From contig CAVPSB010000031.1 in assembly GCA_963708025.1 (NCBI GenBank), forward strand, positions 64,001 to 128,000: a stretch of 64,000 nucleotides of DNA. Direction: 5' to 3'. Positions 2,761 through 52,631 of this stretch are shown piece by piece. Position 1 is the stretch's first letter. Every line of letters begins with the position of its first letter. The stretch comes from an uncultured Candidatus Rokubacteria bacterium. GTDB lineage: Bacteria > Methylomirabilota > Methylomirabilia > Rokubacteriales > DASRDR01. The notes beneath the pieces are model-generated. The model had not been told where the DNA came from. It worked only from the letters and a program-made list of their open reading frames with translations, and made no database searches. The position numbers and the translations under genes were made by a program.

Positions 2761-2789
2761 CTCCCGAGCTTTCCTGCCGAGCGGCGGCC

Positions 2790-4144: not shown

Positions 4145-4493
4145 TCTCTCTCTCCCCTCGGGTGCCACCGAAAAGGCGGTGGCACCCGTATCCGCCGCCA
4201 TCCTGCGCCGATGGCGTGCTTGCGCGCAATGGCTCTCAACGGTCTCGACGACGAGGAGGGTCCGTCCGAGGAGGGGCACACCGGGCATCGCCCTCACGGT
4301 GGCATGCGATGACGGGCGGGTCAACCACCCTGAGTGCACAGAGTCGCCCTCTTCGCCCGCTGGTCAGTTCGCGACCAGACCGATGGCGCGGCTCATCTGA
4401 GAGTCGTTCTCCCACGCACGTTTCCCGTCGGGCCTGCGGGTTGCACTTCCCACCCCGCCGCGATCAAGACGTCTGCATTGGGGGGAGAACGGA

Positions 4494-38199: not shown

Positions 38200-38235
38200 A
38201 TCATGGCGAGACCGTGGGGAGAGGAGCACGAACGG

Positions 38236-39327
38236 ATGAAGCGCGCCGAGGTCGTGATCGTCGGCGCCGGATGCGTCGGCGCCAACGTGGCCTACCGGCT
38301 GGCGCGCGAGGGAGCGCGTGTCACCGTCCTCGACGCCGGGCCGCCGGGCGGCGGCACCTCGGCGGCCAGCTTCGCCTGGGTGAACGCCTTCAACAAGACG
38401 CCGCGCGACTACCACGCGCTCAACGCCGACAGCATGGCCGAGTTCCCCCGGCTGGCGGAGGGGCTGAGCGACGGGAGCTGGCTCAAGCTCGACGGCGGCC
38501 TCCACTGGCGGGACACGCCGGAGGCGCGCGCGGCGCTCCGGGAGACCGTGGCCCGGCTCGAGGAGTGGCGCTACCCGATCGAGATCCTCACGCCGGCGGC
38601 CGCCCGGGAGCTGGAGCCCGACCTCCACCTCGGGCCGGCGGTGGACGAGGTGGTCTTCACGCCGCGCGAAGGCTACGTGGAGGTGGTCCCGCTCGTCGCC
38701 GCGCTCCTGGCCGCCGCCCGGCGCGAAGGGGCGCGGGTCCTCGCCGGCCATCGGGTGACCGGTGTCCTGCGGGCGGGCGACCGCATCCGAGGGGTGACGA
38801 CGGAGGACGGCGCTCGCTTCGAAGCGGACGTCGTCGTGGACTCGGCGGGCCCTGCCATGGACGAGGTGGCGCGGCTGGCCGGCGTCGCCGTCCCGCTCGA
38901 TCGCGTGCCGGGCCGGCTCGTCTACACGACGCCCGTCGCCACAACGCTCCGGCGGCCGATCCACGCGCCCGGCGTCCACTTCCGCCCGGACGGCGGCGGC
39001 CGGGTCGTGCTCGCCGCCGACGACCACGACGTGACCTTCGACGCGCGCACCGCCTGGGACCCCGAGCGGTCGCTGGCCCGCGCCGTGACCCACCTGCCGC
39101 CCCTCGCCGGCGCCCGCGTGGAAGCGGTGCGCATCGGTATCCGGCCGATGCCGCGGGACCAGAAGCCGATGGTGGGGCCGGTGCCCGGCCTCGAGGGCTT
39201 CTACGTCGTGGTCTCGCACAGCGGCGTCACGCTCGGGCCGCTCTGGGGCCGGGTCGTGGCGGCCGAGATCCTCGACCGGAGGCTGGATCCTCGTCTCGAT
39301 CCGTATCGCCCTGCCCGGTTCTGCTGA
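38236..39327 (+). CDS. FAD-dependent oxidoreductase (DAO/glycine oxidase family)
   Basis: VVIVGAGCVG, GTSAASFAWVN, GIRPMPRD, HSGVTLGP. Confidence 0.9.
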   Translation: MKRAEVVIVGAGCVGANVAYRLAREGARVTVLDAGPPGGGTSAASFAWVNAFNKTPRDYHALNADSMAEFPRLAEGLSDGSWLKLDGGLHWRDTPEARAALRETVARLEEWRYPIEILTPAAARELEPDLHLGPAVDEVVFTPREGYVEVVPLVAALLAAARREGARVLAGHRVTGVLRAGDRIRGVTTEDGARFEADVVVDSAGPAMDEVARLAGVAVPLDRVPGRLVYTTPVATTLRRPIHAPGVHFRPDGGGRVVLAADDHDVTFDARTAWDPERSLARAVTHLPPLAGARVEAVRIGIRPMPRDQKPMVGPVPGLEGFYVVVSHSGVTLGPLWGRVVAAEILDRRLDPRLDPYRPARFC

Positions 39328-39328
39328 C

Positions 39329-39575
39329 TCAGGGGGCGGACGGCCGGCGGTAGGCGAGGACCGAGGGAGGCGGCGCGATCCCGGGTGGGAGCCGGGGATC
39401 GGGGACCGGCGCCGCCGGCGAAAGCGCCAGCGGGATCACCCCGGCCCAGCAGGGGAGTCCGTAGTCCTCCTCGTCGTCGATCGGCGGCCCGGTGCGGATC
39501 TTCGCCGACGCCTCCTCGATCGGCAGGCGCAGGACGGCCGTCGCCTTCAGCTCCTGCTCGGTCGGCCATTCGCCA
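39329..39575 (-). pseudogene. C-terminal remnant of pyridoxamine 5'-phosphate oxidase-family (flavin-binding) protein
   Basis: ELKATAVLRLPIEEASAKIRTGPPIDDEEDY..WAGVIPL. Confidence 0.75.
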
Positions 39576-39745
39576 GGAAGGGGTGGGGCCATTCCGGCCG
39601 GCCCCAGAAACGGACGGCCGGGCTCGTCCGTTCTCCGTGTGGAGCCCCCGTCTGGCGCGGAGTCCCCGGCCGGGGTTGACCCGGTGGAAGGACCCGATTA
39701 AGTTAGGCGACACGGAGGTGGTCCCCGGTGGTGGAGAGAGCTGGC

Positions 39746-41134
39746 ATGCTGGAACGGATTCGCGACCTGTGGCGAACGCTGGACCTGGCCACGCGCCCGG
39801 TCCACCCGGACCTGGAAGCGGCGCTGGCGCGGCGCTGGGAGGAGCTTCCCGCGCACGTGAAGACACCCGCCCAGGCCCTCGGCCGCCGGACCATGGGCTG
39901 CGAGGGGACGCACGGTGTCTTCCCCCGCTGCAACCTGGCGTGCACACCCTGCTATCACTCCCGCGACGCGAACCGCGTCCGGACCGACGGCGCTCACACG
40001 GTGACCGAGGTCGATCGCCAGATGGCCTACCTCCGGGAGCGGCGCGGCCCCGGCCAGCACGCCCAGCTCATCGGCGGCGAGGTGAGCCTCCTGTCTCCGG
40101 ATGCCCACGCCGGCGCGCTCCAGGCCATGCTCCGCCACGGGCGGAAGCCGATGAGCCTGAGCCACGGCGACTTCGACTACGAGTACCTGGAGCGGCTCGT
40201 GCTCGGGCCCGACGGCCGGCCGCGCCTCTCCCACATCGCGTTCGCGGGGCACTTCGACTCCATGATGTTCGGCCGCCGGGGGATCACGCGGGCTCGCAGC
40301 GAGCGTGAGCTGAACCCGTACCGGCAGCGCTTCTGCGAGATGTTCCAGCGGCTCGAGCGGGAGCACGGGGTCACGCACTACCTCGCCCACAACATCACGG
40401 TGACCCCGCGCAACGTCGACCAGATCGCCGAGATCGTCCGCGACTGCTGGGACATGGGCTTCCGCATGTTCTCGTTCCAGCCGGGCGCCTTCATCGGCAA
40501 CACCTCCCGCTGGAAGGACGACTACCGGGACCTGGCCGGCGACCGCGTGTGGACGGAGATCGAGCGCGGGGCCGGCGCCCGCCTGCCGTTCCGCATCTTC
40601 CAGAACGGCGACGAGCGCTGCAATCGAGTCGCCCACGGCTTGCAGGTCGGGGAGCGCTGGGTGCCGTTCATGGACGACCTGGTGCCGGGCGACGTCAAGG
40701 CCCGCGACCTGCTCTATTCCGCCATCGGCGGCATGGACTTCCAGGTCCCGCGGGCCATCCTTCTCGCGAAGCTCACCCGGGTCGTCGCCCGGGTCCCGCG
40801 GGCCCTCCCGGCCGCGCTGGCCTGGGGCGCCCGGCTCGTCAGGCGCGCCGGCCCGGCCGCCTGGCTCCGGCACGGCGTCCGCCCCCTCACGTTCGTGATG
40901 CACAGCTTCATGAACGCCGAGGACGTCCGTCCGGCCTGGGAGGGGCTCCGGCGTGGCGTGCTGTCGGACGACCCGCGCATCCGGGCCACCCAGGAGCGCC
41001 TCCAGGCGTGCTCCTACACGATGGGCCATCCCGACTCGGACATGCTGGTGCCGGCGTGCGTCCAGCACTCGGTGCTCGATCCGGAGGAGAACCGGGCGCT
41101 GCAGAAGCTGTTGCCCCTCGTCCCGGGGACGTGA
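39746..41134 (+). CDS. radical SAM protein with auxiliary C-terminal Cys motifs
   Basis: CNLACTPCY (CxxxCxxC), IGGEV, SFQPGAFIG, DERC, HSFM, ERLQAC..LVPAC. Confidence 0.9.
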   Translation: MLERIRDLWRTLDLATRPVHPDLEAALARRWEELPAHVKTPAQALGRRTMGCEGTHGVFPRCNLACTPCYHSRDANRVRTDGAHTVTEVDRQMAYLRERRGPGQHAQLIGGEVSLLSPDAHAGALQAMLRHGRKPMSLSHGDFDYEYLERLVLGPDGRPRLSHIAFAGHFDSMMFGRRGITRARSERELNPYRQRFCEMFQRLEREHGVTHYLAHNITVTPRNVDQIAEIVRDCWDMGFRMFSFQPGAFIGNTSRWKDDYRDLAGDRVWTEIERGAGARLPFRIFQNGDERCNRVAHGLQVGERWVPFMDDLVPGDVKARDLLYSAIGGMDFQVPRAILLAKLTRVVARVPRALPAALAWGARLVRRAGPAAWLRHGVRPLTFVMHSFMNAEDVRPAWEGLRRGVLSDDPRIRATQERLQACSYTMGHPDSDMLVPACVQHSVLDPEENRALQKLLPLVPGT

Positions 41135-41988
41135 CCGGGCTCGTCGTTGACTCGGACAACGGGCTCGGCTCTCCGCGGGGTGACGTTGACGACGGGCTGG
41201 CCCTGGCCGCCCTCTTTCGCAGCGGGCTCCCGATCGCGGCCCTCGCCAGCGTCTTCGGCAACACGGAGGAGTGGCGGGCGCGCGCGAACCACCGCGCGCT
41301 GGCCGCGCTCTGTGGCTACGCGGGCCCCGTTCTCGCCGGCGCCGCCGGCCCCTTGCGGGCGCGGGCCCCGCTGTCGGAAGCGTCGCGGTTTCTCCTCGCC
41401 GGGCCGGGCCCCTGGCGCGTGGTGGCGCTCGGGCCGCTCACCAACCTGGCGGCGGCGCTCGAGGCCGAGCCCCGGGTCGCGGAACGGATCGCCGAGGTGA
41501 TCGCGGTCGGGGGCAACCGGGTTTCGCGTGGCCGCTGGCCACCCGTCTGGCCGTACGAGTTCAACCTCGCTGTCGACCGCCGGGCGGCGCGGGTCGTCTT
41601 CGAGAGCGGCGTGCCGCTGACCCTGGTGCCACTCGACGTGGCCCGGCGGCTCGTGGTGACGCCGCCGGATCTGGCCGCGCTCCCCGGCGCCCTGGGCGAG
41701 CACGTCCGCCGCCACGCGGCGCGCTGGTTCCGGCGAGCCCTCGTCGTCCGGGCCCGCCGCGCCTTCCCGGTCTGGGACCTGGTCGCGGCGCTCTTCGTCG
41801 TGGACCCGGCGTCGTGCGGCACCGAGTCCACCGTGGCCCGGCTCCATCGGAATGGCTGGCTCGAGTTCGGCGCCGGGAGCCGCCCGGTCACGCTCGTCCG
41901 TCCGTTCGACCCACGCGCGCTCTGGCAACGCTTCGTCTCGCTCGCCACGGCCGAGCCTCGACCCGCTCCCCAGCCGACCCCGGCGTGA
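41131..41988 (+). CDS. nucleoside hydrolase (IU-NH family)
   Basis: DSDNG..DVDD, VFGN, GPLTN, EFN, VPLD, VWD; GTGA overlap with the rSAM gene. Confidence 0.85.
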   Translation: MTGLVVDSDNGLGSPRGDVDDGLALAALFRSGLPIAALASVFGNTEEWRARANHRALAALCGYAGPVLAGAAGPLRARAPLSEASRFLLAGPGPWRVVALGPLTNLAAALEAEPRVAERIAEVIAVGGNRVSRGRWPPVWPYEFNLAVDRRAARVVFESGVPLTLVPLDVARRLVVTPPDLAALPGALGEHVRRHAARWFRRALVVRARRAFPVWDLVAALFVVDPASCGTESTVARLHRNGWLEFGAGSRPVTLVRPFDPRALWQRFVSLATAEPRPAPQPTPA

Positions 41989-43139
41989 CCCGGGCGCCGG
42001 CGGTGCTCGTCCTCGCCACCGCGCTGGTCGCCGCGGCGGCGGGCTGCGAGAGCCGGCGCGGCAACTTCTCGCAGAACCCGGGGTTCGCCGCCTACTTCGC
42101 CTCGCATCCGCCGGCCGGCGAGGCGGCGTCGCCGGCCGACCGGGCCCTGCTCCAGCGCTACCGGCCGCGCCTCTGGCTGCCCGCCGGCCACCCGGGCCCC
42201 GTCGACTTCTACGCCGACTACGTGGCCGCCGGCCGGCTGATCGACGGCGCCGGCCGGCCGGCCGCGACACCGGTCACCCGGGCGATCCTCAACGCCCACG
42301 CTCGCGACCCGGGGGCGGTCTTCGTCCACGCGCCGGGATCCTGGCCACCGACGGGGACGGTGTACGGCCGGGTGGATCGCGCGCCGGTGAGCCTTCCGGG
42401 CGATGCCGGCGCGGTCGACGAGCCCTTCACGTTTCTGACCTACCACGTGGTCTTCCGGGTCTCGGGCCTGCCCGCGGCCCTCCCGGCCTGGCAGAGAGCG
42501 CTGCTCCGGGTGGTCGGCTCGCCCGAGGACTGGCACCAGCTCGACCACTACACGGCGGTGACGATCATCCTGGACGGCGAGCTCCGGCCGGTGGCGGTGA
42601 TGCTCCAGGAGCACAACAACCTGCGTACTCATCTCCTCGGCGCCGAGGTGCCGTGGCCGGCCGACGGCCGGGTCCCGATCGACGTGGCGATCCGCTCCAA
42701 CGAGCTGTACCCGCACCGGCCGGGTCGGACCCGGCGGCGGGCGGTGTCCCGGCCCGATCCGGCCGGGATCCGCTACCTGATGACCGGCGAGCGGCCGCCG
42801 TTCGTCTCGGCCGACGACGTGACGGAGCCGGTGGCCGAGGTCGAGTACGCGCTGGCCTTCCTGCCGCCCGACGACGCCTTCTACACCTTCCAGGGCTACC
42901 TCGGCGAGCGGCGGTGGCTTCCCGGCCGCTCGGGGCCGCCCGGAGCCGACTTCAACACGCTCCCGGCGCTCAAGCCGCGGGGCGTGCAGATGCTCGCCTT
43001 CTACTGGCGGGACGGTGACCCGGACGACCTGGCGCGCTTCGACGCGAGCCTGGCGAGCCCGGAGCCGCTGGCCGCCTTCGCCCGCGCCCAGGCGCCCGTC
43101 TTCTACCGCCGCTGGCGATCGGCGAGGCCGGCTGGATGA
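41985..43139 (+). CDS. uncharacterised lipoprotein
   Basis: Lipobox AAAGC; coupled by 4-nt overlaps on both sides. Confidence 0.8.
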   Translation: MTRAPAVLVLATALVAAAAGCESRRGNFSQNPGFAAYFASHPPAGEAASPADRALLQRYRPRLWLPAGHPGPVDFYADYVAAGRLIDGAGRPAATPVTRAILNAHARDPGAVFVHAPGSWPPTGTVYGRVDRAPVSLPGDAGAVDEPFTFLTYHVVFRVSGLPAALPAWQRALLRVVGSPEDWHQLDHYTAVTIILDGELRPVAVMLQEHNNLRTHLLGAEVPWPADGRVPIDVAIRSNELYPHRPGRTRRRAVSRPDPAGIRYLMTGERPPFVSADDVTEPVAEVEYALAFLPPDDAFYTFQGYLGERRWLPGRSGPPGADFNTLPALKPRGVQMLAFYWRDGDPDDLARFDASLASPEPLAAFARAQAPVFYRRWRSARPAG

Positions 43140-43975
43140 CGGGCATCCTGCTCGGCGCCCTCCTCGCGGCGTCGGGCTGGACCGTCACGCCCGCCGAGCT
43201 CCAGGCGCGGCCGGCGGGTGCGGTGACGATCCTCGACGCGCGGGGGTTCCTCGATCACTGGCGCGGCCACGTCCCGGGTGCCGTGTGGATCACCTGGTGG
43301 TGGTACCGGGACGGCTGGCTCCGCACCGGGCGGCTGCCGCGCGACCTCGACCGGCTGGCCCGGCAGATGGCGGATCTCGGCGTGGACGCGGAGCGCCCCG
43401 TCGTGGTGTACGGGCGGGCGCGCGAGGGCTGGGGTGAGGAGGGCCGGATCGTCTGGATGCTGCGCTATCTCGGCCACCCCGACGTCGCCCTGCTCGACGG
43501 CGGCTGGCCCGCGTGGCGGGAGGCCGGCGGCGCGGTGGCCCGCGGGCTCGCGGGGCGGCCCCGCCCGGGTCGGCTCGTCGCGAGGCTGCGGCCCGAGCTG
43601 CGGGCCAGCGCCGACGACGTGGCGGCGGCGGCCGGCGCGGGCACCGCGCTCCTCGACGTGCGGTCCGACTCGGAGTGGAACGGCGCCACGCCCTACTTCG
43701 AGGCGCGAGGCGGCCACGTGCCAGGCGCCGTACATCTGCCGTGGACCGCGCTCCTGGACGCCGAGGGCCGGGTCGACCGGTCGGGGCGGGCGCTGGCGCG
43801 GCTCGGGCGGCTCGGCGTGACGCCCGACCGTCCGGTCATCGTCTACTGCACGGGCGGCGTCCGGTCGGCGGAGGCGCTCGTCGCGCTCGCGGCGCTCGGC
43901 TTCCGCGACGTCCGGAGCTACGACGGCTCGTGGTTCGAGTGGGCGGCCGACCGGAGTCGCCCGGTCGCGCAATGA
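43136..43975 (+). CDS. double-domain rhodanese/sulfurtransferase
   Basis: ILDAR..GHVPGA, LLDGGW, LLDVRS..GGHVPGA, VYCTGGVRS, YDGSWFEW. Confidence 0.9.
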   Translation: MTGILLGALLAASGWTVTPAELQARPAGAVTILDARGFLDHWRGHVPGAVWITWWWYRDGWLRTGRLPRDLDRLARQMADLGVDAERPVVVYGRAREGWGEEGRIVWMLRYLGHPDVALLDGGWPAWREAGGAVARGLAGRPRPGRLVARLRPELRASADDVAAAAGAGTALLDVRSDSEWNGATPYFEARGGHVPGAVHLPWTALLDAEGRVDRSGRALARLGRLGVTPDRPVIVYCTGGVRSAEALVALAALGFRDVRSYDGSWFEWAADRSRPVAQ

Positions 43976-44682
43976 TGTGCGGGCTCCGGTCGTGCGCGGC
44001 GGTGGGTCTGGCGGCGCTGCTGACCGCGTGCGCGGCGGCGCCGCCGGATCGGCGGGCCGCCGGGACGGCCGGCGAGCGGATTCTGTTCGCCGCCGAGACC
44101 GCGATCCAGGACGAGTGGCAGCCGGTGGCGCTCCGGGGGGAGACGGAGTACCGGCTCGCCGTGCTGGACGGCCGGCTCGCCATCCGGGCCGTCGGACGCC
44201 AGTCGGCGTCGGGCCTCCTGCGTCCCGTGCAGGTCGATCCGTCTCGCTGCCCGGTTCTCGAGTGGACGTGGCGCGTCGAGCGCCTGCAGCCCGACGCGGA
44301 CCTCCGCGTCAAGGAGCGGGACGACGTCGCGGCGTCGCTCTTTCTCTTCTTCGGCGACCCGGGGCTCCTGATCAACCCCAACCGGGTGCCGACCCTGCGT
44401 TACGTGTGGACGAGCGCCCGGATCCCGGTCGGCGCCGTCGTCGACAGCCCGTACGCGCCGGGCACCGTGCGGAGCCTGGTGGTGGAGAGCGGCGAGAGCC
44501 GGCTCGGGCGCTGGGTCACCGAGCGGCGCCGGGTCGCCGACGACTTCGAGCAGGCCTTCGGGCGGCGACCGACCGCGCCTGTCCAGGCCATCGCCCTCTT
44601 CACGGACAACGACCAGACCGGTCAGCCCGTCGAGTCGTACTACGCGGGGCCCGCGCCCTCTGCGAGTAAGTGTCGCCGATAA
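43972..44682 (+). CDS. DUF3047-family lipoprotein
   Basis: Lipobox LTAC, SASGL, LEWTWRV, DD.AA, LRYVW, WVTERR..DD, TDNDQTG. Confidence 0.82.
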   Translation: MMCGLRSCAAVGLAALLTACAAAPPDRRAAGTAGERILFAAETAIQDEWQPVALRGETEYRLAVLDGRLAIRAVGRQSASGLLRPVQVDPSRCPVLEWTWRVERLQPDADLRVKERDDVAASLFLFFGDPGLLINPNRVPTLRYVWTSARIPVGAVVDSPYAPGTVRSLVVESGESRLGRWVTERRRVADDFEQAFGRRPTAPVQAIALFTDNDQTGQPVESYYAGPAPSASKCRR

Positions 44683-44816
44683 CCGGTCGCCTTTCTGATT
44701 GAAAGAGCAATCGCGATACAATGGCGGTGCGCCTGTTGCGATCTCCCTGGTGGAAGTATGGTTCGGCCACCGAGGATGCTGGGAGCGCAGTGCACGGCCT
44801 TTGAAAGGAGGCGGTC

Positions 44817-45113
44817 ATGGCGGAAGGAATCGCCCACGGCGAGCCGCCGACGTTCTATGCAAACGTCGTAACTGCGTCGGTCGACCCCGACGTGGTATAC
44901 CTCGAGCTGAGGCGCTACATCACGCCGCACCGAGACATGTACCGGATGACGCAGCCGGCGGGGGAAGTCCCAGCGATCTCCGGCGAAGCAGTCTACGCCA
45001 TAGATCCGGTCGCGCGCGTGGTGCTCACATACACTGCCGCGAGGTTGCTGCAGCAGAACCTGAACGACCTGATTCCGAAGATGGTATCGGCTCGCAGGGG
45101 ATCCGAACAATGA
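44817..45113 (+). CDS. DUF3467-like small protein
   Basis: SD AAGGAGG; TFYANVV..DVVYLEL..PVARVVLT..AARLL..L pattern. Confidence 0.65.
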   Translation: MAEGIAHGEPPTFYANVVTASVDPDVVYLELRRYITPHRDMYRMTQPAGEVPAISGEAVYAIDPVARVVLTYTAARLLQQNLNDLIPKMVSARRGSEQ

Positions 45114-45575
45114 GGATCGGGCCTCCGCAGACCATCTTCCTTCACCATCATCCCTTGACTCGGGTGGTCGATTTCGCAGGCGCGCCTCCAGAGTTCCTTC
45201 GGTCGAAGCCCGCCGGGATTCCGCCGGTGTTGCCTTTCGAGCTTTTCATCGGACGAGCTACGCCCAGAGTGTCCGCGATACTCGGCAGAACGCCGCTGAA
45301 GTCGCTCCCGTGGCGTACGCGCTGACTCGAGGATCGGGAATACGGGCGGTGGAAAGCGTCGAGCCCGAGAATGGAGCTGGCGAAAGGCAAACGAAGAACG
45401 ACTGCGGCGTGATTTCTTGGGGTTGTGGATTGCCCTAGAAGGCGAGGAGATCGTCGCAAGTGGACCGAATCCCGTGGATGTTGTCCGGCTGGCTCGACAG
45501 CGCGGCATACGTTCTCCGTATGTATTCCGGGTAGAGGCGGCGGCAGAGCCGAGAACCTCCTTTCTGGGTCTTTGA
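45110..45575 (+). CDS. DUF5678-like protein (frameshift near 45297; C-terminal half absent from ORF track)
   Basis: Frame from 45300: EWSWRKANEERLRRDFLGLWIALEGEEIVASGPNPVDVVRLARQRGIRSPYVFRV..FLGL-stop. Confidence 0.7.
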
Positions 45576-45581
45576 GAACCG

Positions 45582-46016
45582 ATGGTCTTGGTCAACTACG
45601 CTCGTACGTTTGACTATCGATACTATGGCGGGCAGTCCTTTCCCATTCTGACCATCCAGCTGAAAAACCCGGATGATGAAGGACTTGCCGTCGAGCAGGA
45701 TGCTTTCCTCGACTCCGGGGCGTCCCGATCTCTCTTCTACGGGCATCTACCGGCGATGCTCGGGCTGGAGTTGCTCGGCGGAGAGCCATGGCACTTTCAG
45801 ACGAATGCAGGCGAGGTGGTAGAGGCGCGAATTCACACAGTTCAAATCATCCTTGCCGAAGCGGAAGGCGAACCGACTCCCCATCCGTTCACTCTTCCGT
45901 TGGCCTTTGCCACCGGGACCATCAGCAGGAATCTTCTCGGCCGAGACTTCTTTGATCGAGTTCAAATCGGTTTCCGGGAACATCACTCGCAGTTCTTCCT
46001 GGAGCCGACACCGTAG
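45582..46016 (+). CDS. retropepsin-like (clan AA) aspartyl protease
   Basis: Catalytic FLDSGASRS and C-terminal LLGRDFF. Confidence 0.82.
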   Translation: MVLVNYARTFDYRYYGGQSFPILTIQLKNPDDEGLAVEQDAFLDSGASRSLFYGHLPAMLGLELLGGEPWHFQTNAGEVVEARIHTVQIILAEAEGEPTPHPFTLPLAFATGTISRNLLGRDFFDRVQIGFREHHSQFFLEPTP

Positions 46017-46090
46017 AAGGGGAGGTGACCCGCGGACGCCTGGACGGCGGGCGCGTATCGCATGCAGGGCGAGGTGAGCCATGCGAAGCC

Positions 46091-46158
46091 TCCGAGCGCC
46101 GGCTTCGCCGGCGCAACGGCGGGGGGGCATCGGGGGGGTGTTCCGACACCCCCCCGAA
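46091..46158. repeat. repeat family C hairpin (46091-46117) plus family B copy (46121-46158)
   Basis: tccgagcgccggcttcgccggcgcaac resembles 50750-50776; B matches 22841. Confidence 0.75.
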
Positions 46159-46162
46159 GGTT

Positions 46163-47008
46163 TTAGGGCTGGTTCAGGTTCCAGTCGTAGTCGTGATCGA
46201 GCCCGCCGTCGTAGTCCTGGAGCTGCTTGGCCAGATCGCCCTTCGCGAACTGCTTGAGGTGCTGGAGCACGCCGCCGGTGCTCCCTCCGAAGTCCTCCTG
46301 GAACCAGACGTAGATGCTGGAGACCTTCAGCTTGTTGAACTTCAAGCTGGCCCCCCGCGGATGATTGACGTAGTCGGCGGCGTACTGCATCAGCAGGCGC
46401 TCGGTGTTCTGCCCGGTGTAGGCGGCAGGGGAGAGGTTCGGGCAGCCGAGGCTCGCGCAGTTGACCGCGTAGTGGATCTTCGGGTCCTTCCAGATCGGCC
46501 GGAGGACCCGGTGCTCGATGTCGTTGAGCGAGAGCTTCTCACCCTCCACCGTCACGACCTTCCCGTCCCAGGGTCCGATGGTGAACAACCCGGGCGGGAT
46601 CTTGACCTTCCGGATGGAGGCGACCGGGAAGTGGTCCAGGATGACCTTCACGGTCTCCGTGTTGTAGAGGTTGATCCAGTACGCCTTCTGCTCGTTCCGG
46701 TTGTAGCCCGAGATGGGGACCGCCTGCAGGCGCCCCAGGTAGTCCTCGAGGCTCTTCCGGTCCTCGGGGCTGACCGTCTTGTAGTTCACCCGGTTGATGC
46801 CCGAGGGGTTCTTGGCGTCGACGTACTTGGCGAGGAAGGCGTCCCACGCCGCGTGGTCGATCGTGCGGGTGTCGGCGGGATTGTGCTTCTCCCACCGGGG
46901 CCACAGGTCGCTCTTGGGCGGGCCGAAGAGCTGGGCATTCGCCACCCCGAGCCACCCGAGGGTCACGCCCGCCGCGAACAGTGTCACTTTCCAGACGGTG
47001 CTGGCCAT
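46163..47008 (-). CDS. DUF547-domain secreted protein
   Basis: IDHAAWDAFL, AYWINLYN, SLNDIEH, DPKIHYAVNCASLGCP, SSIYVWF, YDWNLN. Confidence 0.9.
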   Translation of the reverse strand: MASTVWKVTLFAAGVTLGWLGVANAQLFGPPKSDLWPRWEKHNPADTRTIDHAAWDAFLAKYVDAKNPSGINRVNYKTVSPEDRKSLEDYLGRLQAVPISGYNRNEQKAYWINLYNTETVKVILDHFPVASIRKVKIPPGLFTIGPWDGKVVTVEGEKLSLNDIEHRVLRPIWKDPKIHYAVNCASLGCPNLSPAAYTGQNTERLLMQYAADYVNHPRGASLKFNKLKVSSIYVWFQEDFGGSTGGVLQHLKQFAKGDLAKQLQDYDGGLDHDYDWNLNQP

Positions 47009-47027
47009 GTCGATTTCTCCTTCGTCT

Positions 47028-47498
47028 CTACGTTTCTACGATCGATCCCGGCCCGTTGGGTGCCAGGCCGGACGCGCGTCGGTACAGGAGCCATGAAAGC
47101 CCGGCGAGCGCCAGGTCCTCGAGCGGGGAGAACCAGCGGAGCGGCCGCGCCAGGAAGATCCCGAAGCAGCCGCAGTTCTTGAGGTCGAGCCCGCGCGCTA
47201 GCGTGAGGGAGAGCAGGACGGCGTACCCCAGGTTCACGGCGATCGCCGCCAGCGCCGCCGTCGCGGGACGCCAGCCCGAGAGGAGCCACACCCCGAGGAC
47301 CAGCTCGCTGGCCGTGACGGCGACCGCGACCGGGTAGAGAAACACGGGCGTGAGGAGTCCGTAGCTCTCCATCACGCGGACGAAGCCGTGGAGATCGAGG
47401 GCCTTGCCGATCCCAGTCCCCAGGATCAGGATGCCGAGCACGATCCGGAGCACCAGCCGCCCCCGGCCCCTCGACGCCGGCGACCTTGCCGGGGTCAT
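47028..47498 (-). CDS. MauE/DoxX-family redox-associated membrane protein
   Basis: GK, ELVLG, RGLDLKNCGCFG. Confidence 0.8.
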   Translation of the reverse strand: MTPARSPASRGRGRLVLRIVLGILILGTGIGKALDLHGFVRVMESYGLLTPVFLYPVAVAVTASELVLGVWLLSGWRPATAALAAIAVNLGYAVLLSLTLARGLDLKNCGCFGIFLARPLRWFSPLEDLALAGLSWLLYRRASGLAPNGPGSIVET

Positions 47499-48247
47499 CG
47501 ACGCGTCCGCTCCGTCCCCCCCACGCTCCCGGGGATCGCCGCCGGGTCGGCGGGCGGCCGCGCCGGCCCGTAGTACCAGCGATGGAGCCGCGCCGGGGAC
47601 GCCCCGCAAGCGTAGAGGAGCCGGAGCGCCCACATGAGCAGGATCGTGCGGACGACGCCGTCCCGCTCCCACTTCCGGGCGGCGGTCGTCACCCGGAGCC
47701 GGAGCGCCGCCCGGCGTCCCGCGCGCTTGAGGCGGCGCGTCAGCTCGACGTCCTCCATCAAGGGGATCTCGGCGTAGCCGCCGAGCGCCTCGAACACCGC
47801 CCGGCGGACGAAGATCGCCTGGTCCCCGGTCGAGATCCCGCTCAGGCGGGACCGGAGATTCATCAGGGCCGCGATCATGCGGAAGGCCGGCCCCGGGTTG
47901 TCGAACCGGACGTCGAACCGCCCGGCGACCACCCGCGGGTCACCGAGCGCGTCCAGGATCGCGGCCCGGGCTCCCGGGGGAAGGCGCGTGTCCGCGTGGA
48001 GGAAGAGGAGGATCTCGCCCGTCGCCGCCCGGGCGCCCGTGTTCAGCTGGCGGGCCCGGCCTCGCGCGCTGTCGAGGAGGGTGACGTGCGGGAACCCGCG
48101 CACCGCCTCCCGGCTCCCGTCGTCGCTGCCGCCGTCGGCGACGATGATCTCGTCCTGGCCGAAGTCGGCGCCCAGGCTGGCCAGCAGGGGCTCGAGGTTG
48201 CGGGCCTCCCGCCAGGTGGGGATGACGATGGACAGCCGGGGCGTCAC
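47495..48247 (-). CDS. TIGR04283-type GT2 glycosyltransferase (rSAM/arsenosugar-cluster associated)
   Basis: LSIVIPT, ADGGSDDG, GRARQLNTGA, LFLHADT, TGDQAIFV, PLMEDVEL, TAARKW. Confidence 0.85.
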   Translation of the reverse strand: MTPRLSIVIPTWREARNLEPLLASLGADFGQDEIIVADGGSDDGSREAVRGFPHVTLLDSARGRARQLNTGARAATGEILLFLHADTRLPPGARAAILDALGDPRVVAGRFDVRFDNPGPAFRMIAALMNLRSRLSGISTGDQAIFVRRAVFEALGGYAEIPLMEDVELTRRLKRAGRRAALRLRVTTAARKWERDGVVRTILLMWALRLLYACGASPARLHRWYYGPARPPADPAAIPGSVGGTERTRR

Positions 48248-48250
48248 GGT

Positions 48251-48313
48251 TCGGGACCTCCCTCCCGCCCCCCAGCCCCCCTCCCCCACCCACTGGGGGG
48301 AGGGGGGTGTCGG
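48251..48313 (-). repeat. repeat family A copy
   Basis: Reverse complement matches 16190-16253. Confidence 0.85.
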
Positions 48314-48337
48314 GCACGATGCGCCGTCACGTGGCCC

Positions 48338-49129
48338 TCACCAGGTCCGCAGGAGCTCGCCGGCCACCCGGCTCCGGCGGTGGAGCCAGCGAGGCAGGAG
48401 CGAGACGAGGACGATCAGGACGCCGGCCACGCCGAGGTACGCGAGGGTCCGCCGGGGATTGCCGCCGCCCTCGCCCAGGGCGCCGCCGGCGAGCGCGAAG
48501 GCCGCGGTGCCGGGCAGCATGCAGAGCCAGGACAGGCCGACGAACGTCCAGAAGGGGATGCGGGTCAGGCCGTAGGCGAAGTTCTGGAGGTTGAACGGGA
48601 AGAGCGGCACCAGCCGGGTGATCATCAGGATGCGCCAGCCGTGCTCGGCGACGGCCGCGTCGATCCGGGCCAGCCGGGGGTTCGCCCGCACCCAGCCCTC
48701 CACCAGCCCGCGCGCCGCGTAGCGAGCGGCCAGGAAGGCGAGCGCGGCGCCGAGGGTCGCGCCGATCGAGACGACGATCGTGCCCCGGACCGGCCCGAAG
48801 ACCAGGCCCCCGAGCAGAGTCAGCGGCAGGGCCGGCACGAAGGCCAGCTCGGCGAGCGCGTAGCCCACGATGAACAGGACGGGGGCCCACGCGCCGTAGC
48901 CATCGACCCATGACTTCAGGCGGGCGAGGGTGTCCGCCTGGAAGAGCTGCTGGACCCCCAGGCTCCGGGCGAGGAGCGCGCCGGCGGCGACCACGATCAC
49001 CAGCAACAGGATCCGCCCCCACGGCGCCCGCTGCCGCAGGGGCGCCGCCGGCTCGGCAGCCCCGCGGGAGGGGTTCTCAGCCGGAGACGGCGCGCCGGCC
49101 CATCGCCCTACCGGGTCCAGGCCAGCCAC
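48338..49129 (-). CDS. TVP38/TMEM64 (VTT/DedA) membrane protein; true start possibly near 49103
   Basis: FVPALPLTLLGGLVFG, GATLGA, RLVPLFPFNLQNFAYGLT, MLPGT. Confidence 0.88.
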   Translation of the reverse strand: MAGLDPVGRWAGAPSPAENPSRGAAEPAAPLRQRAPWGRILLLVIVVAAGALLARSLGVQQLFQADTLARLKSWVDGYGAWAPVLFIVGYALAELAFVPALPLTLLGGLVFGPVRGTIVVSIGATLGAALAFLAARYAARGLVEGWVRANPRLARIDAAVAEHGWRILMITRLVPLFPFNLQNFAYGLTRIPFWTFVGLSWLCMLPGTAAFALAGGALGEGGGNPRRTLAYLGVAGVLIVLVSLLPRWLHRRSRVAGELLRTW

Positions 49130-50634
49130 TTCCGGAAGAGGTTCTTGACCGTCGGTGTCAGCCGGGTCCGGTTGTAAGCGTCGCCGAGCTTCCGGATGGC
49201 TTCCGCCTGGGTCGGGTAGCTGTGGATCACGCTGGCGATCTTCCCGAGCCCGATCCCGTGCACGAGGGCGAGGGTCAGCTCGGGCAGCATCTCGCCGGCG
49301 TGCCGGGCGACGATGGTCGCGCCGACGATCTTGTCCGTCCCCTCCCGGACGTGCACCTTCACGAAGCCTTCGGGCTCGCCGTCGAGGACCGCCCGGTCGA
49401 GGTCGGCGAACTCCTGGACGAAGGTCTTGACCCGGATTCCCCGCTTCTGCGCCTCGGACTCAGAGAGGCCGACGTGGGCGATCTCGGGATCGGTGTAGGT
49501 GCAGGCCGGGATCGTGAGCGCGCTGGCCCGGGCCCGCCCGAAGAAGAGGGCGTTCTGGATCACGATCCGCGCCTGGAAGTCCGAGTTGTGGGTGAACTTG
49601 TAGCCGGGGCAGACGTCCCCGGCGGCGAAGATGCGGGGGTTGGTCGTCCGCAGCCGGTCGTCGACCTTGATCCCCTTCGCGTCGTGCTGGACGCCGACCG
49701 TCTCCAGGCCCAGGCCCTCGACGTTGGGCGCCCGGCCGACGCCGACGAGGATCGCGTCGGCCCGCACGGTCTCGCCGGGGCCGCCCGCCTCGACGTGGAG
49801 GAGCTTCTCGCCGCCGGCGGCCTCGACGCGCTGGATCTTGCAGCCGACCAGGATGCGGATGCCGTCCCGGGCGAGCGAGGCCTGCACCATCGCCGCCGCC
49901 TCGCGGTCCTCCAGCGGCAGGATCTGGGGCATCACCTCGAGGAGCGTGACCTGGGCGCCGAAGCGCGCGAAGGCCTGGGCCAGCTCGCAGCCGATCGGGC
50001 CGGCGCCGATCACGGCGAGGCGGCGGGGCAGCTCGGTCAGCCGGAAGACCGTCTCGTTCGTCAGGAAGCCCGCCTCGGCCAGCCCGGCGATGGGCAGGGC
50101 GGCGGCCCGGGCGCCGGTGGCGATCACCGCCTTCTTGAAGGTGAGGCGGGTGCCGTTCACCTCGACCTCGTCCGCGCTGACGAAGCGCCCGGCGCCCATG
50201 AAGACGTCAACGCCGAGGTCGCGGAACCGCCCCGCGGAGTCGGTCTTGCTGATCTTCGCCCGCAGCCGCCGCATCCGCTCCATGACGGCCGGGAAGTTGA
50301 CGCGCGCCCCGGGCGGCACCTCCACGCCGAACTCGCCGGCGTCCCGGACGTCGGCGTAGGCCCGGGCGGCCCGCAGCAGGGCCTTGGACGGGACGCAGCC
50401 GACGTTGAGGCAGTCGCCCCCCATCAGCTCCCGCTCGATGAGCGCGACCTTCGCCCCCAGCCCGGTGGCCCCCGCCGCGGTGACCAGCCCGGCGGTGCCG
50501 GCGCCGATCACCACCAGGTTGTAGCGGCCCGCCGGCTTGGGGTTGACCCACTCAGGCGGGTGGACGTTCTGGACGAGCCCCTGGTTGTGGCTGTCCCAGG
50601 GCTCGATCACGATCGACTCGGTGGCCTTCTCCAT
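49108..50634 (-). CDS. MerA/LpdA-like pyridine nucleotide-disulfide oxidoreductase
   Basis: VIGAGTAG, GGDCLNVGCVPSK, IGAGPIG, YTDPE, HSYPT; no C-terminal Cys-Cys. Confidence 0.88.
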   Translation of the reverse strand: MEKATESIVIEPWDSHNQGLVQNVHPPEWVNPKPAGRYNLVVIGAGTAGLVTAAGATGLGAKVALIERELMGGDCLNVGCVPSKALLRAARAYADVRDAGEFGVEVPPGARVNFPAVMERMRRLRAKISKTDSAGRFRDLGVDVFMGAGRFVSADEVEVNGTRLTFKKAVIATGARAAALPIAGLAEAGFLTNETVFRLTELPRRLAVIGAGPIGCELAQAFARFGAQVTLLEVMPQILPLEDREAAAMVQASLARDGIRILVGCKIQRVEAAGGEKLLHVEAGGPGETVRADAILVGVGRAPNVEGLGLETVGVQHDAKGIKVDDRLRTTNPRIFAAGDVCPGYKFTHNSDFQARIVIQNALFFGRARASALTIPACTYTDPEIAHVGLSESEAQKRGIRVKTFVQEFADLDRAVLDGEPEGFVKVHVREGTDKIVGATIVARHAGEMLPELTLALVHGIGLGKIASVIHSYPTQAEAIRKLGDAYNRTRLTPTVKNLFRKWLAWTR

Positions 50635-50749
50635 CACCTCACGCACCTCTCTGGTCGCGCCGGCTCCGCTCTTCCGATCTCAGCCCGATCCGTCGCGCGT
50701 GGGCTTCTCGCGATGCTCAGCCTGTGCTCTCGCGGTCGTGGCGTTCCAC

Positions 50750-50833
50750 TCCGAGCGGCGGCTTCGCCGCCGCAACCCCCTCCCGGGGGAGGTTCCGGAG
50801 GGGGCCCCTTACGATCAGTGGGCCCCCTCCGGT
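50750..50833. repeat. repeat family C hairpin plus GC palindromes
   Basis: gcggcggc-ttc-gccgccgc; ccggagggggccc..gggccccctccgg. Confidence 0.7.
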
Positions 50834-50835
50834 CT

Positions 50836-51564
50836 CTAGCGCTCGGTGCGCTGCTGAAGGGCTCGCCGGGCGACCCTCGTGACGTACACCGTCACCGCCA
50901 CCGTCGCCAGCAGACCGACCACGCGGAGTGCCCACTCGGCGGTGGACGTGGCCCGCTGACCGGTGCCGACCGCCGCCAGGTCCCCGGCAAGGGAGCCGAA
51001 GTAGACGTACATCACGGTGCCGGGCATCATGCCGATCCAGGATGCGAAGAAGTAGTCGCGGAGCGACACGCGGGTCAGGCCGAACGCGTAGTTCAGGAGG
51101 TTGAACGGGAACGCCGGCGAGAGCCGGGTGAGCCCGACGATCTTCCAGCCCTCCCGGCCGACCGCCTCGTCGATCGCCTTGAACTTGGTGTTGCCCTCGA
51201 TCTTCTTCGACACCCAGTCGCGGGCCAGGTAGCGGCCGACGAGGAAGGCGGCGGTGGCCCCGAGGGTCGCCGCGATCGAGACGATGATCGAGCCCTTGAC
51301 CACGCCGAAGACGAAGCCGGCGCCGAGCGTGAGGATCAAGCCCGGCAGGAAGAGGACGGTGGCGGCGATGTAGAGGAGCACGAAGATCACCGGCCCCCAC
51401 GGGCCGAGCCCGGCGATGCCGTCGAGCGCCTGCCGCAGCAGGGCCTGGGCGTTGAAGTAGCGGGCCGCGGCCAGGAGGGCCACGATGACGAGCACCCAGA
51501 GGACGAGCTTGGCCTTCGAGCCCGATTTCTGTGCCGGAGCTGCCGTGGCCGTGGTCGGTGGCAT
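50836..51564 (-). CDS. TVP38/TMEM64 (VTT/DedA) membrane protein
   Basis: FLPGLILTLGAGFVFG, RLSPAFPFNLLNYAFGLT, MMPGT. Confidence 0.9.
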   Translation of the reverse strand: MPPTTATAAPAQKSGSKAKLVLWVLVIVALLAAARYFNAQALLRQALDGIAGLGPWGPVIFVLLYIAATVLFLPGLILTLGAGFVFGVVKGSIIVSIAATLGATAAFLVGRYLARDWVSKKIEGNTKFKAIDEAVGREGWKIVGLTRLSPAFPFNLLNYAFGLTRVSLRDYFFASWIGMMPGTVMYVYFGSLAGDLAAVGTGQRATSTAEWALRVVGLLATVAVTVYVTRVARRALQQRTER

Positions 51565-51774
51565 ACTTCCGCTCCTTGTCCACGCGGGTCCCGCGTCGAA
51601 TGGTGCTCAGGAGTATACTCTGCTGGCCCGCTCGCTGTCTCCCGGTTCGCGGTCTTCTCGTCGCCGAGGTCTACGTCAGGGCCGAGGAGGCGGGGTTGGC
51701 CCTGGAGGGCCGGCTCCGAAGTAGCCTGCAGATCCACCGACTTCGTCGCCGCCGGGCTCCTGTAGAATGCCGTC

Positions 51775-52524
51775 ATGCCAACCGACGCCAGCGACCGGAA
51801 GCTCGAGATCGTCACCGAGGTCCCCGATCGCGCCATGGTGGTCTTCGCCCATCCCGACGACGGGGAGATCGGCTCCGGAGGCGTGGTGGCCCGGTGGGTG
51901 GCCGCCGGCAGCGAGGTCACCTACGTGCTCTGCACGAACGGCGACGCCGGCACCGCCGACCGGTCGCTGACGCCGGCCGAGCTCGCCACGCGGCGGGCGG
52001 ACGAGCAGCGCGCCGCCGCGGACTTCATGGGCGTCCGGCACGTGGTCATGCTGGGCTATCCCGACGGCGAGCTCGAGGACACCCGGGCGTTCCTCGGCGA
52101 CGTCGTGCGCGCCATTCGCCGGTACCAGCCGCACACGGTCTTCGTCCACGACCCGTATCGGATCAAGGGGTTCCAGCACCGCGATCACCGCAAGGCGGGC
52201 ATCGTGACGACGGATGCCGTCTATCCGTTCGCCCGCGACCACCTGCACTTCCCCGACCAGATCACGCGGGACGGCCTCGAGCCCCACCGGGTCCGCGAGC
52301 TCTGGTACTGGGGCATGGACGAGCCGAACGTCATCGTCGACATCACGGACTCGATCGACCGGCAGATCGCCGCCCTCGTCCGCCACGAAAGCCAGGTGCC
52401 CGGCTTCAACGTGCCGCCGGGCGAGACGCTCGGCGAGCGCGTGAAGCGCCATGCCGTCGAGCTGGCGGCGGGCTACGGCTTCGAGTACGGCGCCGTGTTC
52501 CGGCGCCTGATCGCCCGGCGCTGA
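51775..52524 (+). CDS. PIG-L/LmbE family deacetylase
   Basis: AHPDD, TNGDAG, YPDG, HRDH, HESQ. Confidence 0.9.
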   Translation: MPTDASDRKLEIVTEVPDRAMVVFAHPDDGEIGSGGVVARWVAAGSEVTYVLCTNGDAGTADRSLTPAELATRRADEQRAAADFMGVRHVVMLGYPDGELEDTRAFLGDVVRAIRRYQPHTVFVHDPYRIKGFQHRDHRKAGIVTTDAVYPFARDHLHFPDQITRDGLEPHRVRELWYWGMDEPNVIVDITDSIDRQIAALVRHESQVPGFNVPPGETLGERVKRHAVELAAGYGFEYGAVFRRLIARR

Positions 52525-52631
52525 CCGCATCCTCCCCTTCCTGGTGGGGGAGGGAGCGGGCCCGGGGCGCCCGGAAGGCTGATACACTACCCGGCGGCAG
52601 CGGACCGTCGCGTCCGCGAAAGGAGGCCACC

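Follow-up and report, generated by a model that had tools for sequence, protein, structure and literature searches.

A convergent eleven-gene cluster

The window analysed here is a 64,000-nucleotide stretch of DNA from an uncultured Candidatus Rokubacteria bacterium (positions 64,001 to 128,000 of contig CAVPSB010000031.1, assembly GCA_963708025.1). It carries a cluster of eleven genes in convergent arrangement, five on the plus strand facing six on the minus strand. The plus arm encodes, in order, an enzyme of the radical S-adenosylmethionine (SAM) type named P0001, a nucleoside hydrolase (NH) of the inosine-uridine (IU) type, a lipoprotein, a tandem rhodanese and a DUF3047 protein. The minus arm encodes, in order, the membrane protein VTT1, a flavin adenine dinucleotide (FAD)-dependent disulfide reductase, a second membrane protein VTT2, a glycosyltransferase (GT) of family TIGR04283, a MauE/DoxX protein and a DUF547 protein. 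Genes were picked by third-position GC, the window having about 72% G+C, and were then confirmed with the Pfam and NCBIfam hidden Markov models (HMMs). The features are the following (aa, amino acids).

39728..41134, plus strand: radical SAM enzyme (P0001, 468 aa), CX3CX2C motif; Pfam Radical_SAM 29.3 bits, cut-off 29.5
41131..41988, plus strand: short IU-type NH (P0002, 285 aa), PF01156 113 bits; GTGA overlap of its start with the end of the radical SAM gene
41985..43139, plus strand: exported lipoprotein of an unnamed conserved family (P0003, 384 aa), lipobox; GTGA overlap with NH
43136..43975, plus strand: tandem rhodanese sulfurtransferase, PF00581 124 bits in two stretches
43972..44682, plus strand: DUF3047 lipoprotein, PF11249 149 bits, lipobox; ATGA overlap with the rhodanese
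44683..46162, no strand: inter-arm spacer, GC 0.53-0.67 per 100 nucleotides; possible retropepsin-like open reading frame
46163..47008, minus strand: DUF547 protein, PF04784 84 bits; signal peptide recognised by eye
47028..47498, minus strand: MauE/DoxX membrane protein, PF07291 65 bits, PF07681 34 bits
47495..48289, minus strand: family-2 glycosyltransferase, TIGR04283 257 bits, cut-off 182
48338..49129, minus strand: VTT/DedA membrane protein (VTT2), PF09335 88 bits
49108..50646, minus strand: FAD-dependent pyridine-nucleotide disulfide oxidoreductase, NF004991 813 bits, cut-off 620
50836..51564, minus strand: VTT/DedA membrane protein (VTT1), PF09335 109 bits

The four junctions of the plus arm read GTGA, GTGA, ATGA and ATGA, showing that the chain of five genes joined by 4-nucleotide overlaps, which the original prediction had described as converging on a minus-strand run, is real. 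The start of P0001 may lie at an ATG six codons downstream of the called one. On the minus arm, the MauE/DoxX gene likely begins at the ATG at position 47498, where it would overlap the GT stop as ATGA. A spacer of about 190 nucleotides with a strong hairpin separates VTT1 from the reductase gene, and VTT1 probably forms its own transcription unit. The DUF547, DUF3047, VTT (both), MauE/DoxX and rhodanese proteins all exceed their Pfam gathering cut-offs. The GT matches TIGR04283 with 257.4 bits over positions 1-221 of 221, and no other protein of the genome passes that cut-off. The reductase carries a CxxxxC redox pair; its assignment as MerA (TIGR02053) was rejected because it scores 386 bits against a cut-off of 454 and has no MerA-type C-terminal Cys pair, and NF004991 fits instead.

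To our knowledge, no genes have been assigned to what follows ArsS on the way to arsenosugars and arsenolipids, namely the removal of the base, the transfer of a glycosyl group and the attachment to lipid, and we know of no product for the core of reductase, VTT and GT genes, which occurs across several phyla. The accessory genes at the locus are indeed, as first proposed, those of the ArsS/TIGR04283 cassette, in which NCBIfam groups ArsS (TIGR04167), TIGR04282 and TIGR04283 under the label arsenosugar biosynthesis. ArsS itself, TIGR04282 and ArsM are all absent from the window, again as predicted, the latter two being encoded elsewhere in the genome. ArsS is described in PMC12159101 as the adenosylating radical SAM enzyme of arsenosugar synthesis. 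The reading that we prefer, and to which we give about even credence, is that both arms work together as a single hybrid cluster, a variant of this ArsS-type cassette with another radical SAM enzyme at its head.

The radical SAM enzyme, its relatives and the nucleoside hydrolase

The CX3CX2C motif of P0001 corresponds to C68/C72/C75. No NCBIfam family was matched by this protein. At E ≤ 0.01, it matched neither ArsS (TIGR04167, cut-off 300 bits) nor Tes/GDGT-MAS (NF045702, cut-off 450 bits), and no match to HpnH (TIGR03470, cut-off 225 bits) was obtained. A DUF3641 domain was not found either, so that the initial view of P0001 as an enzyme other than ArsS is borne out by HMM. A single-sequence phmmer search against PDB chains returned nothing at E ≤ 1; only a profile built from 46 sequences (A3) found 7TOL, a structure of GDGT-MAS, with an E-value of 6.2e-15 (positions 55-445 against 111-503), far above all other structures. 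The AlphaFold model of P0001 has a predicted local distance difference test (pLDDT) score of 92.5. Using this model, Foldseek also ranked 7TOL first (E 1e-12, next entry 3.7e-6), and VIA-align superposed it on GDGT-MAS with a Z-score of 25.5 and a root-mean-square deviation of 3.8 Å over 342 residues. The runner-up fold, with a Z-score of 15.2, covered only the radical SAM core.

The likeness extends to the C-terminal region. Residues C298, M395, C428 and C444, invariant or nearly so in the family, align with the region of GDGT-MAS in which its C-terminal auxiliary cluster and a labile methionine are found, the latter being Met439 in PMC9433317. Judged from this alignment, the four residues are candidate cluster ligands. 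The same source describes N-terminal rubredoxin (CX2C...CX2H) and N-terminal [4Fe-4S] domains in GDGT-MAS. P0001 has neither of these: its residues 1-57 contain no Cys, and the structural alignment begins at chain residue 60-81. Overall, the near full-length fold match, the CX3CX2C motif and the C-terminal cluster-domain residues place P0001, as profile and predicted model have it, in the Tes/GDGT-MAS superfamily, yet by HMM it is not Tes. Tes, the tetraether lipid synthase, is treated in PMC8941075 and a bacterial membrane-spanning lipid synthase in PMC13159169. TrsS is the nearest named bacterial relative; a mention of it was found in the literature only as a table entry, in PMC13188914.

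Homologues of P0001 are numerous, with 2558 matches among the candidates scored, the top ones being 66-95% identical, and 563 representatives at 50% clustering (E ≤ 1e-3). Distant members (30-37% identity) match the Tes and TrsS HMMs weakly (33-67 bits). One of the distant members, P0222 (597 aa), has an N-terminal thioredoxin-like domain of the VPGUxxT-type (seleno)protein kind (71 bits), a fusion that links the family to thiol/selenol redox chemistry. In the window's own genome no true Tes was found; four proteins match NF045702 weakly and P0001 is not among them. The best of these matches (74 bits, still weak) is another radical SAM protein, in a 506-aa frame at contig C14:415790-416323, which may be a second Tes-like enzyme.

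The relationship to GDGT-MAS brings in a first alternative, because the reaction described for that enzyme in PMC9433317 is hydrogen abstraction followed by the joining of lipid tails, with C-C coupling via a cluster-sulfur intermediate and no adenosyl transfer. P0001 might perform lipid-tail chemistry only, cross-linking, thiolating or otherwise modifying tails by hydrogen abstraction and cluster sulfur, with no adenosyl or ribosyl product. The NH would then merely clear inhibitory 5'-deoxyadenosine, and the GT, the VTT proteins and the exported proteins would build and handle a glycolipid. We judge this unlikely. The full-length homology to GDGT-MAS, including the aligned C-terminal residues, argues for it, and the rhodanese and thiol-redox genes would fit a supply of sulfur to the cluster. 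The neighbourhoods of P0001 homologues and the NH bear on it further.

A scan of one genome per species confirmed 588 radical SAM loci, and neighbours were counted at the best 80 of these 588 in two tblastn passes, with the window proteins and then with local representatives. Full flanks, at least 6 kb on both sides, were available for 51 of the 80 loci. All 80 lie in Actinomycetota, mostly in Solirubrobacterales and Thermoleophilia; further actinobacterial carriers belong to Mycobacteriales, Actinoplanes, Kineococcus, Nakamurella and Acidimicrobiales. The neighbours are listed below, counted in all 80 loci and then in the 51 with full flanks.

GT: 52/80; 37/51
metallophosphoesterase-radical SAM fusion: 46/80; 34/51
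FAD reductase: 41/80; 33/51
Pyr_redox gene of about 400 aa: 37/80; 27/51
single-domain rhodanese: 19/80; 15/51
CDP-alcohol phosphatidyltransferase, directly downstream: 14/80; 10/51
DUF427: 12/80; 9/51
PNP_UDP_1 phosphorylase: 11/80; 8/51
VTT: 10/80; 8/51
VTT-PAP2 fusion: 6/80; 5/51
any of GT, reductase and VTT: 69/80; 49/51

The adjoining GTs are true TIGR04283 members (200-210 bits), one of them fused to TIGR04282. The phosphoesterase-fused radical SAM proteins score highest with the Rv1681 family, where they reach 266-276 bits (cut-off 380) as compared to 46-48 bits for ArsS. ArsS over the cut-off was found in none of five actinobacterial genomes carrying the P0001 family. We considered that this family simply replaces ArsS everywhere and rejected the idea, since most loci have a second, different radical SAM gene. 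AhpC-like and DsbD-like genes are also present as neighbours. When searched at E 1e-3, the window rhodanese gave single-domain matches in 11 of the 80 loci. The original prediction, which linked the radical SAM enzyme to the NH, GT, DUF547 and VTT genes, stands for the GT (52 loci), the reductase (41) and the three module families taken together (49 of the 51 full-flank loci), and for DUF547 beside a radical SAM paralogue; for the NH it holds only in the nearest clade, none of the 80 loci having that gene. A general lack of co-occurrence in other genomes, which would have spoken against the prediction, was not seen.

Lipid genes stand near the actinobacterial loci: the CDP-alcohol phosphatidyltransferase, the VTT-PAP2 fusions and an LPG-synthase TM gene. 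Together with an LGT-like gene in a relative of the window's organism (G193, below), they speak for the lipid-tail alternative. More generally, the data suggest that this widespread gene set acts on membrane lipids and that the product of the cluster is a membrane lipid.

The NH exceeds the PF01156 gathering cut-off (113 against 34.2 bits) and falls below the cut-offs of RihA, RihB, RihC and UriH (382-459 bits), the best being RihC with 80 bits. Its Asp cluster and its GNT, LGPLTN, EFN and (W/F)DL motifs are kept across 20 homologues, in which D9, D18, D20, D21, N44, T104, E143, N145 and D216 are invariant. In IU-type hydrolases, these motifs are presumably the ones that bind Ca2+ and ribose. 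The closest homologues, 64-87% identical, lie on four metagenomic contigs of 11756, 10426, 9931 and 5654 nucleotides. Radical SAM homologues were found on contigs of 11756, 10426 and 5654 nucleotides and lipoprotein homologues on contigs of 11756, 10426 and 9931 nucleotides. The equal contig sizes suggest that a few closely related genomes, forming a small clade, have kept the trio of radical SAM, NH and lipoprotein genes. In addition, a 1.9-kb metagenome contig (L115) has the NH directly before the lipoprotein. Remoter NH homologues occur in Acidobacteriota, Planctomycetota and Thermoanaerobaculia, and the NH accompanies the radical SAM gene only in the nearest clade.

The PNP_UDP_1 phosphorylase found at 11 of the 80 actinobacterial loci is not homologous to the NH. 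A nucleoside-cleaving gene therefore recurs with the radical SAM family in two non-homologous forms, IU hydrolase and PNP_UDP_1, a recurrence that argues against lipid-tail chemistry as the whole function. The window's own genome has four PNP_UDP_1 genes that could already serve to dispose of 5'-deoxyadenosine, so that a general need for such disposal seems covered; this too argues against a mere clearing role for the NH. Finally, the slot of P0001 is held in relatives by ArsS (next section), an adenosyl-transferring enzyme according to PMC12159101.

The genome also has a true HpnH gene (531 bits) with an adjoining PNP_UDP_1 gene (contig C16:79560-81803), and the organism probably makes extended hopanoids. 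In hopanoid side-chain synthesis, the radical SAM enzyme HpnH, an adenosylhopane synthase, and HpnG, a nucleosidase of the PNP_UDP_1 family, carry out adenosyl transfer to a lipid followed by removal of the base. Because nucleoside cleavage recurs, four PNP_UDP_1 genes are present, an HpnH pair exists and the equivalent slot is occupied by ArsS in relatives, we favour base removal specific to the pathway, acting on an adenosyl-derived intermediate, as the role of the NH.

The reductase-VTT-GT module and the exported proteins in other genomes

The window's own lineage was covered by 60 relatives, a sample of their groups, and by 250 other genomes of the phylum. A GT was found in 35 of the 60 relatives (17 of 20 of the same family, 18 of 37 of the sister family). 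The window's GT is 65-69% identical to that of same-family relatives, VTT2 is 60-65% identical to the VTT protein encoded between reductase and GT in the same relatives, and VTT1 is 64-65% identical to the VTT protein of two order-level relatives (L107 and L108). At 9 of 12 fetched relative loci, reductase, VTT and GT occur together, with 58-71% identity to the window genes.

Of the 60 relatives, 11 have ArsS over the cut-off, a number that rises to 14 at E ≤ 1e-40; every one of them is a member of the window's own family. One genus includes 13 genomes in which ArsS is encoded on the same strand as the GT and within about 3.3 kb of it. Pfam analysis of one such locus recovered ArsS (Radical_SAM with DUF3641), reductase, VTT and GT, in this order. 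At one relative's ArsS match (G014, contig C92:13263-13625), the frame contains a single in-frame TGA; on sequence, this would fit a selenocysteine form of ArsS. A radical SAM gene of the P0001 type was found in none of the 60 relatives, and in the other 250 genomes only as one paralogue of 34-36% identity. ArsS was not found anywhere in the window's own genome (best 44 bits, cut-off 300), and no Rv1681-type phosphoesterase-radical SAM fusion reached its cut-off there (best 66 bits, cut-off 380). The genome thus keeps the native module, lacks ArsS and has a radical SAM gene that is otherwise actinobacterial, which points to horizontal acquisition with non-orthologous displacement, or to a swap of the front end. 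Most likely, judging from these distributions, the radical SAM gene was acquired horizontally from Actinomycetota.

The same distribution can be taken to mean that two unrelated operons happen to converge, the plus arm being an acquired mosaic with a function of its own and the minus arm the native module minus ArsS. The convergent orientation with a lower-GC spacer of 1.5 kb agrees with this, as do the absence of the radical SAM gene from all 60 relatives, the presence of the module without either radical SAM gene in order-level relatives, and the fact that no second locus showing both arms together was found. We nevertheless regard a chance encounter as highly improbable: the radical SAM family adjoins the same module at 49 of the 51 full-flank actinobacterial loci, a landing beside it by accident in an 8.2-Mb genome is very unlikely, and other genomes show a connection between the arms for each of the DUF3047, DUF547 and lipoprotein families.

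These links came from the proteins that look exported. Four do so: lipoboxes are present in the lipoprotein and the DUF3047 protein, a signal peptide in the DUF547 protein and a hydrophobic N-terminus in the rhodanese. DUF3047 adjoins the GT in the two order-level relatives L107 and L108, and DUF547 adjoins it in L110. In relative G193 (L215:7873-10722), an LGT-like diacylglyceryl transferase, DUF547 and a Tes-like radical SAM paralogue form one string, DUF547 being directly upstream of the paralogue, which is 34% identical to P0001. A CMD/AhpD-like gene converges on this string, giving a lipid-plus-thiol context. A metagenome contig (L153, positions 59-4441) carries a lipoprotein homologue, ArsS (Radical_SAM with DUF3641), DUF3047 and VTT in one string; a classical ArsS neighbourhood can thus include a member of the unnamed lipoprotein family. 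That the DUF3047, lipoprotein and DUF547 families connect the arms in other genomes is our main reason for treating the two arms as one system.

The lipoprotein P0003 belongs to no Pfam or NCBIfam family. It has 552 homologues, of which the few attached names mention NC10/Methylomirabilales and Proteobacteria. Its predicted fold resembles, weakly, an NLP/NPP1-like beta-sandwich (Foldseek E 1e-3, target-normalised template-modelling score 0.40-0.45; Atlas scores 0.81-0.83 for NPP1/Vps62 clusters), which we regard as a weak lead from a model and not as a finding. Among 80 metagenome loci of the family, the NH was a neighbour in one, DUF3047 in two and VTT in one; reductase-like matches in two loci, 27-29% identical, are probably unrelated. 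Its common neighbours at these 80 loci (PurL, glutaredoxin, SelD fusion, DAO) show no single theme. In three loci, the gene directly upstream of the lipoprotein homologue encodes a glutaredoxin, and in L122 the homologue is divergent from a SelD fusion. The window rhodanese has its active-site Cys only in the second domain, and its closest NCBIfam model is 3-mercaptopyruvate sulfurtransferase (105 bits, cut-off 250).

Two further genes flank the cluster: a ThiO-like DAO flavoprotein gene just upstream of the radical SAM gene (38041-39324, plus strand), and a PIG-L/BshB-like deacetylase gene divergent from VTT1 (51775-52521, plus strand; BshB1 105 bits, below the cut-off). In L116, L121 and L191, too, a DAO gene is found beside the lipoprotein homologue. 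Searching DAO and PIG-L with tblastn at E 1e-3 in the 80 actinobacterial loci gave one marginal DAO match only. In the inter-arm spacer, a 144-aa open reading frame (45582..46016, plus strand) shows weak retropepsin-like aspartyl-protease matches (E 0.003, below the cut-off), and the spacer may be a remnant of inserted DNA. Rfam found nothing at E ≤ 0.1 in positions 38000-53000, and a promoter and terminator scan gave sites no more frequent than in shuffled sequences. The assembly has an estimated contamination of 8.18%. A chimeric contig was considered and is unlikely, both arms holding genes with same-phylum relatives on a contig of about 398 kb.

The pathway might handle any of three elements, each with some indications of its own. 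For arsenic, ArsM is encoded in the genome (contig C43, 370 bits), and one of the actinobacterial loci, in an Actinoplanes metagenome-assembled genome (L088, 3627-12029), has the radical SAM gene near an ars operon with ACR3 (447 bits), a double ArsR, an ArsO-like flavoprotein and an ArsK-like major facilitator superfamily protein. The CDP-alcohol phosphatidyltransferase lies directly downstream in that locus. For selenium, there are the SelD fusions beside TIGR04282 and beside the lipoprotein homologue, and for sulfur the rhodaneses, the disulfide reductase, DoxX and the AhpC-like and DsbD-like neighbours. The TIGR04282 gene of the genome (contig C23, 189 bits) is unlinked to the cluster. Beside it, within L008:4297-10345, are a fusion of SelD with a pyridine-nucleotide disulfide oxidoreductase (TIGR03169 405 bits, selD 268 bits) and a 607-aa methyltransferase, a selenium-flavoured locus that may belong to the same pathway.

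As a special case of the hybrid-cluster reading, the product could be arsenosugars or arsenosugar lipids made from the dimethylarsenite of ArsM, with the Tes-like enzyme serving as an analogue of ArsS. Such a true arsenic pathway is backed by the TIGR04283 GT, by the presence of ArsM and TIGR04282 in the genome, by ArsS in the equivalent slot of relatives and by the ACR3, ArsK-like and two ArsR domains near the L088 radical SAM gene. We think it decidedly unlikely all the same. Arsenic-specific genes were present at only one of ten annotated loci (L088), ArsM and TIGR04282 are unlinked here, the SelD fusions point equally to selenium, and the thiol-redox genes fit sulfur.

Proposed pathway and comparison with known systems

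The hybrid-cluster reading can be put as a pathway, whose chemical steps and product we infer from gene content and from the families involved. ArsS would have been lost, and a Tes-like radical SAM enzyme would have arrived with its coupled NH, the two genes now sharing an operon with those of three proteins that look exported. By location, the products fall into cytoplasmic enzymes (radical SAM enzyme, NH, GT and FAD reductase), membrane proteins (the two VTT/DedA proteins and MauE/DoxX) and the four proteins that look exported. The Tes-like enzyme, working in the cytoplasm, would draw on SAM and on the auxiliary Fe-S cluster at its C-terminus, forming a covalent adduct on a substrate either hydrophobic (a lipid) or bearing a heteroatom (S, Se or As). 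The NH would strip the base from the adenosyl-derived intermediate, like HpnG after HpnH. The GT would then transfer a sugar, either onto a lipid-linked species or off it, and passage of the product through the membrane would fall to the VTT proteins. On the periplasmic side, the lipoprotein, the rhodanese, DUF3047, DUF547 and MauE/DoxX would handle thiol, selenol or arsenic chemistry, with reducing power supplied by the FAD reductase. By this adenosyl-adduct route, the product could be a ribosyl lipid containing As, S or Se.

Several observations weigh against this reading. The adenosyl-adduct step has no support from homology, because GDGT-MAS, according to PMC9433317, abstracts hydrogen and joins lipid tails. 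Of the parallel adenosyl pathway originally proposed, nucleoside cleavage is supported indirectly, by the translational coupling of the NH, by its presence alongside the radical SAM gene on the four contigs and by PNP_UDP_1 at 11 of 80 loci, whereas adenosyl transfer is not the known chemistry of the Tes superfamily. The arms are convergent and 1.5 kb apart, with a spacer GC of 0.53-0.67 as compared to an average of 0.72. In sister-family relatives, 18 of 37 have the GT and none has ArsS or a P0001-type radical SAM gene; a radical SAM enzyme is therefore not obligatory for the module. A second radical SAM protein, the phosphoesterase fusion, at 46 of the 80 actinobacterial loci means that the P0001 family may not be the equivalent of ArsS. 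The NH, lipoprotein, DUF3047, DUF547 and MauE proteins were found by tblastn at none of these 80 loci, even at E 1e-3. Gene calls at fetched loci relied on a third-position GC heuristic and on tblastn at E 1e-5 to 1e-8 with 40-50% coverage, which can miss divergent members. At about 77 of 80 metagenomic loci of the lipoprotein family, none of the cluster genes is a neighbour. Absence of the NH, lipoprotein, DUF3047 and DUF547 genes from the actinobacterial loci, together with a lipoprotein that is mostly unlinked, suggests that the plus arm is a lineage-specific mosaic. Lastly, the co-location of radical SAM, NH and lipoprotein genes is read from equal contig sizes.

A wider proposal would be that the set labelled arsenosugar biosynthesis is a general bacterial system for membrane lipids carrying a SAM-derived sugar or an S, Se or As group, with the mutually unrelated ArsS, Rv1681-like and Tes-like enzymes as interchangeable front ends. 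The Tes-like family would then be a bacterial offshoot of tetraether synthase that forges on a lipid, by means of auxiliary-cluster sulfur, a bond from carbon to a heteroatom or to adenosyl, instead of a tail-to-tail C-C bond. We consider this rather unlikely; if true, it would be new chemistry for the Tes superfamily.

Our full-text literature search for TIGR04283 found no paper mentioning it. The cluster ties the reductase-VTT-GT core to a radical SAM enzyme of the tetraether-synthase superfamily, to a dedicated NH and to exported sulfur/thiol proteins, and it offers concrete candidates for the missing steps after ArsS. The radical SAM family is uncharacterised and occurs in several hundred actinobacterial species, cultured ones included. 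It would widen the known Tes-like chemistry and bears on the reading of bacterial membrane-spanning lipid biomarkers.

Among known systems, the ArsS-type rSAM/selenodomain cassette shares with the window the over-cut-off TIGR04283 GT, a core that is 58-71% identical to the core adjoining ArsS in relatives, DUF547 and DUF3047 in the neighbourhood, and TIGR04282 and ArsM in the genome. Unlike in that cassette, ArsS is absent from the genome, the radical SAM enzyme comes from another superfamily and has no DUF3641, and TIGR04282 is unlinked, leaving TIGR04283 as the only one of the three linked marker genes in the cluster. The window adds an IU-type NH, a tandem rhodanese and the unnamed lipoprotein.

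Tes/GDGT-MAS (Methanocaldococcus jannaschii MJ0619; 7TOL, 7TOM; NF045702) is the best profile and structure match of P0001, near full length and with the CX3CX2C motif. P0001 differs from it in its low identity (17%), the lack of a Tes HMM match, its bacterial host, and its neighbours, which are GT, VTT, thiol reductase and nucleosidase genes rather than archaeal lipid genes. With HpnH and HpnG, the cluster shares the pairing of a radical SAM gene with a base-removing enzyme, which would act on a lipid-linked adenosyl adduct by the proposed logic. In contrast to that pair, P0001 has no HpnH match and is coupled with a hydrolase of the IU type instead of PNP_UDP_1. The DoxX-SseA system of mycobacteria is a membrane thiol oxidoreductase complex, and the cluster likewise holds a DoxX-family membrane protein and an SseA-like tandem rhodanese. 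The likeness is one of resemblance only: no SodA partner was seen in the cluster, and the DoxX and rhodanese genes are on opposite arms.

The remaining counterpart is the actinobacterial operon that combines an Rv1681-like radical SAM-metallophosphoesterase fusion with TIGR04283 (in part TIGR04282), reductase and VTT genes. Compared with this operon, the window lacks the phosphoesterase fusion, the Pyr_redox gene of about 400 aa, DUF427 and the CDP-alcohol transferase, and has the NH, lipoprotein, DUF3047, DUF547 and MauE genes instead. The two have in common their radical SAM family, whose members are 59-72% identical, as well as their families of GT, reductase and VTT proteins.

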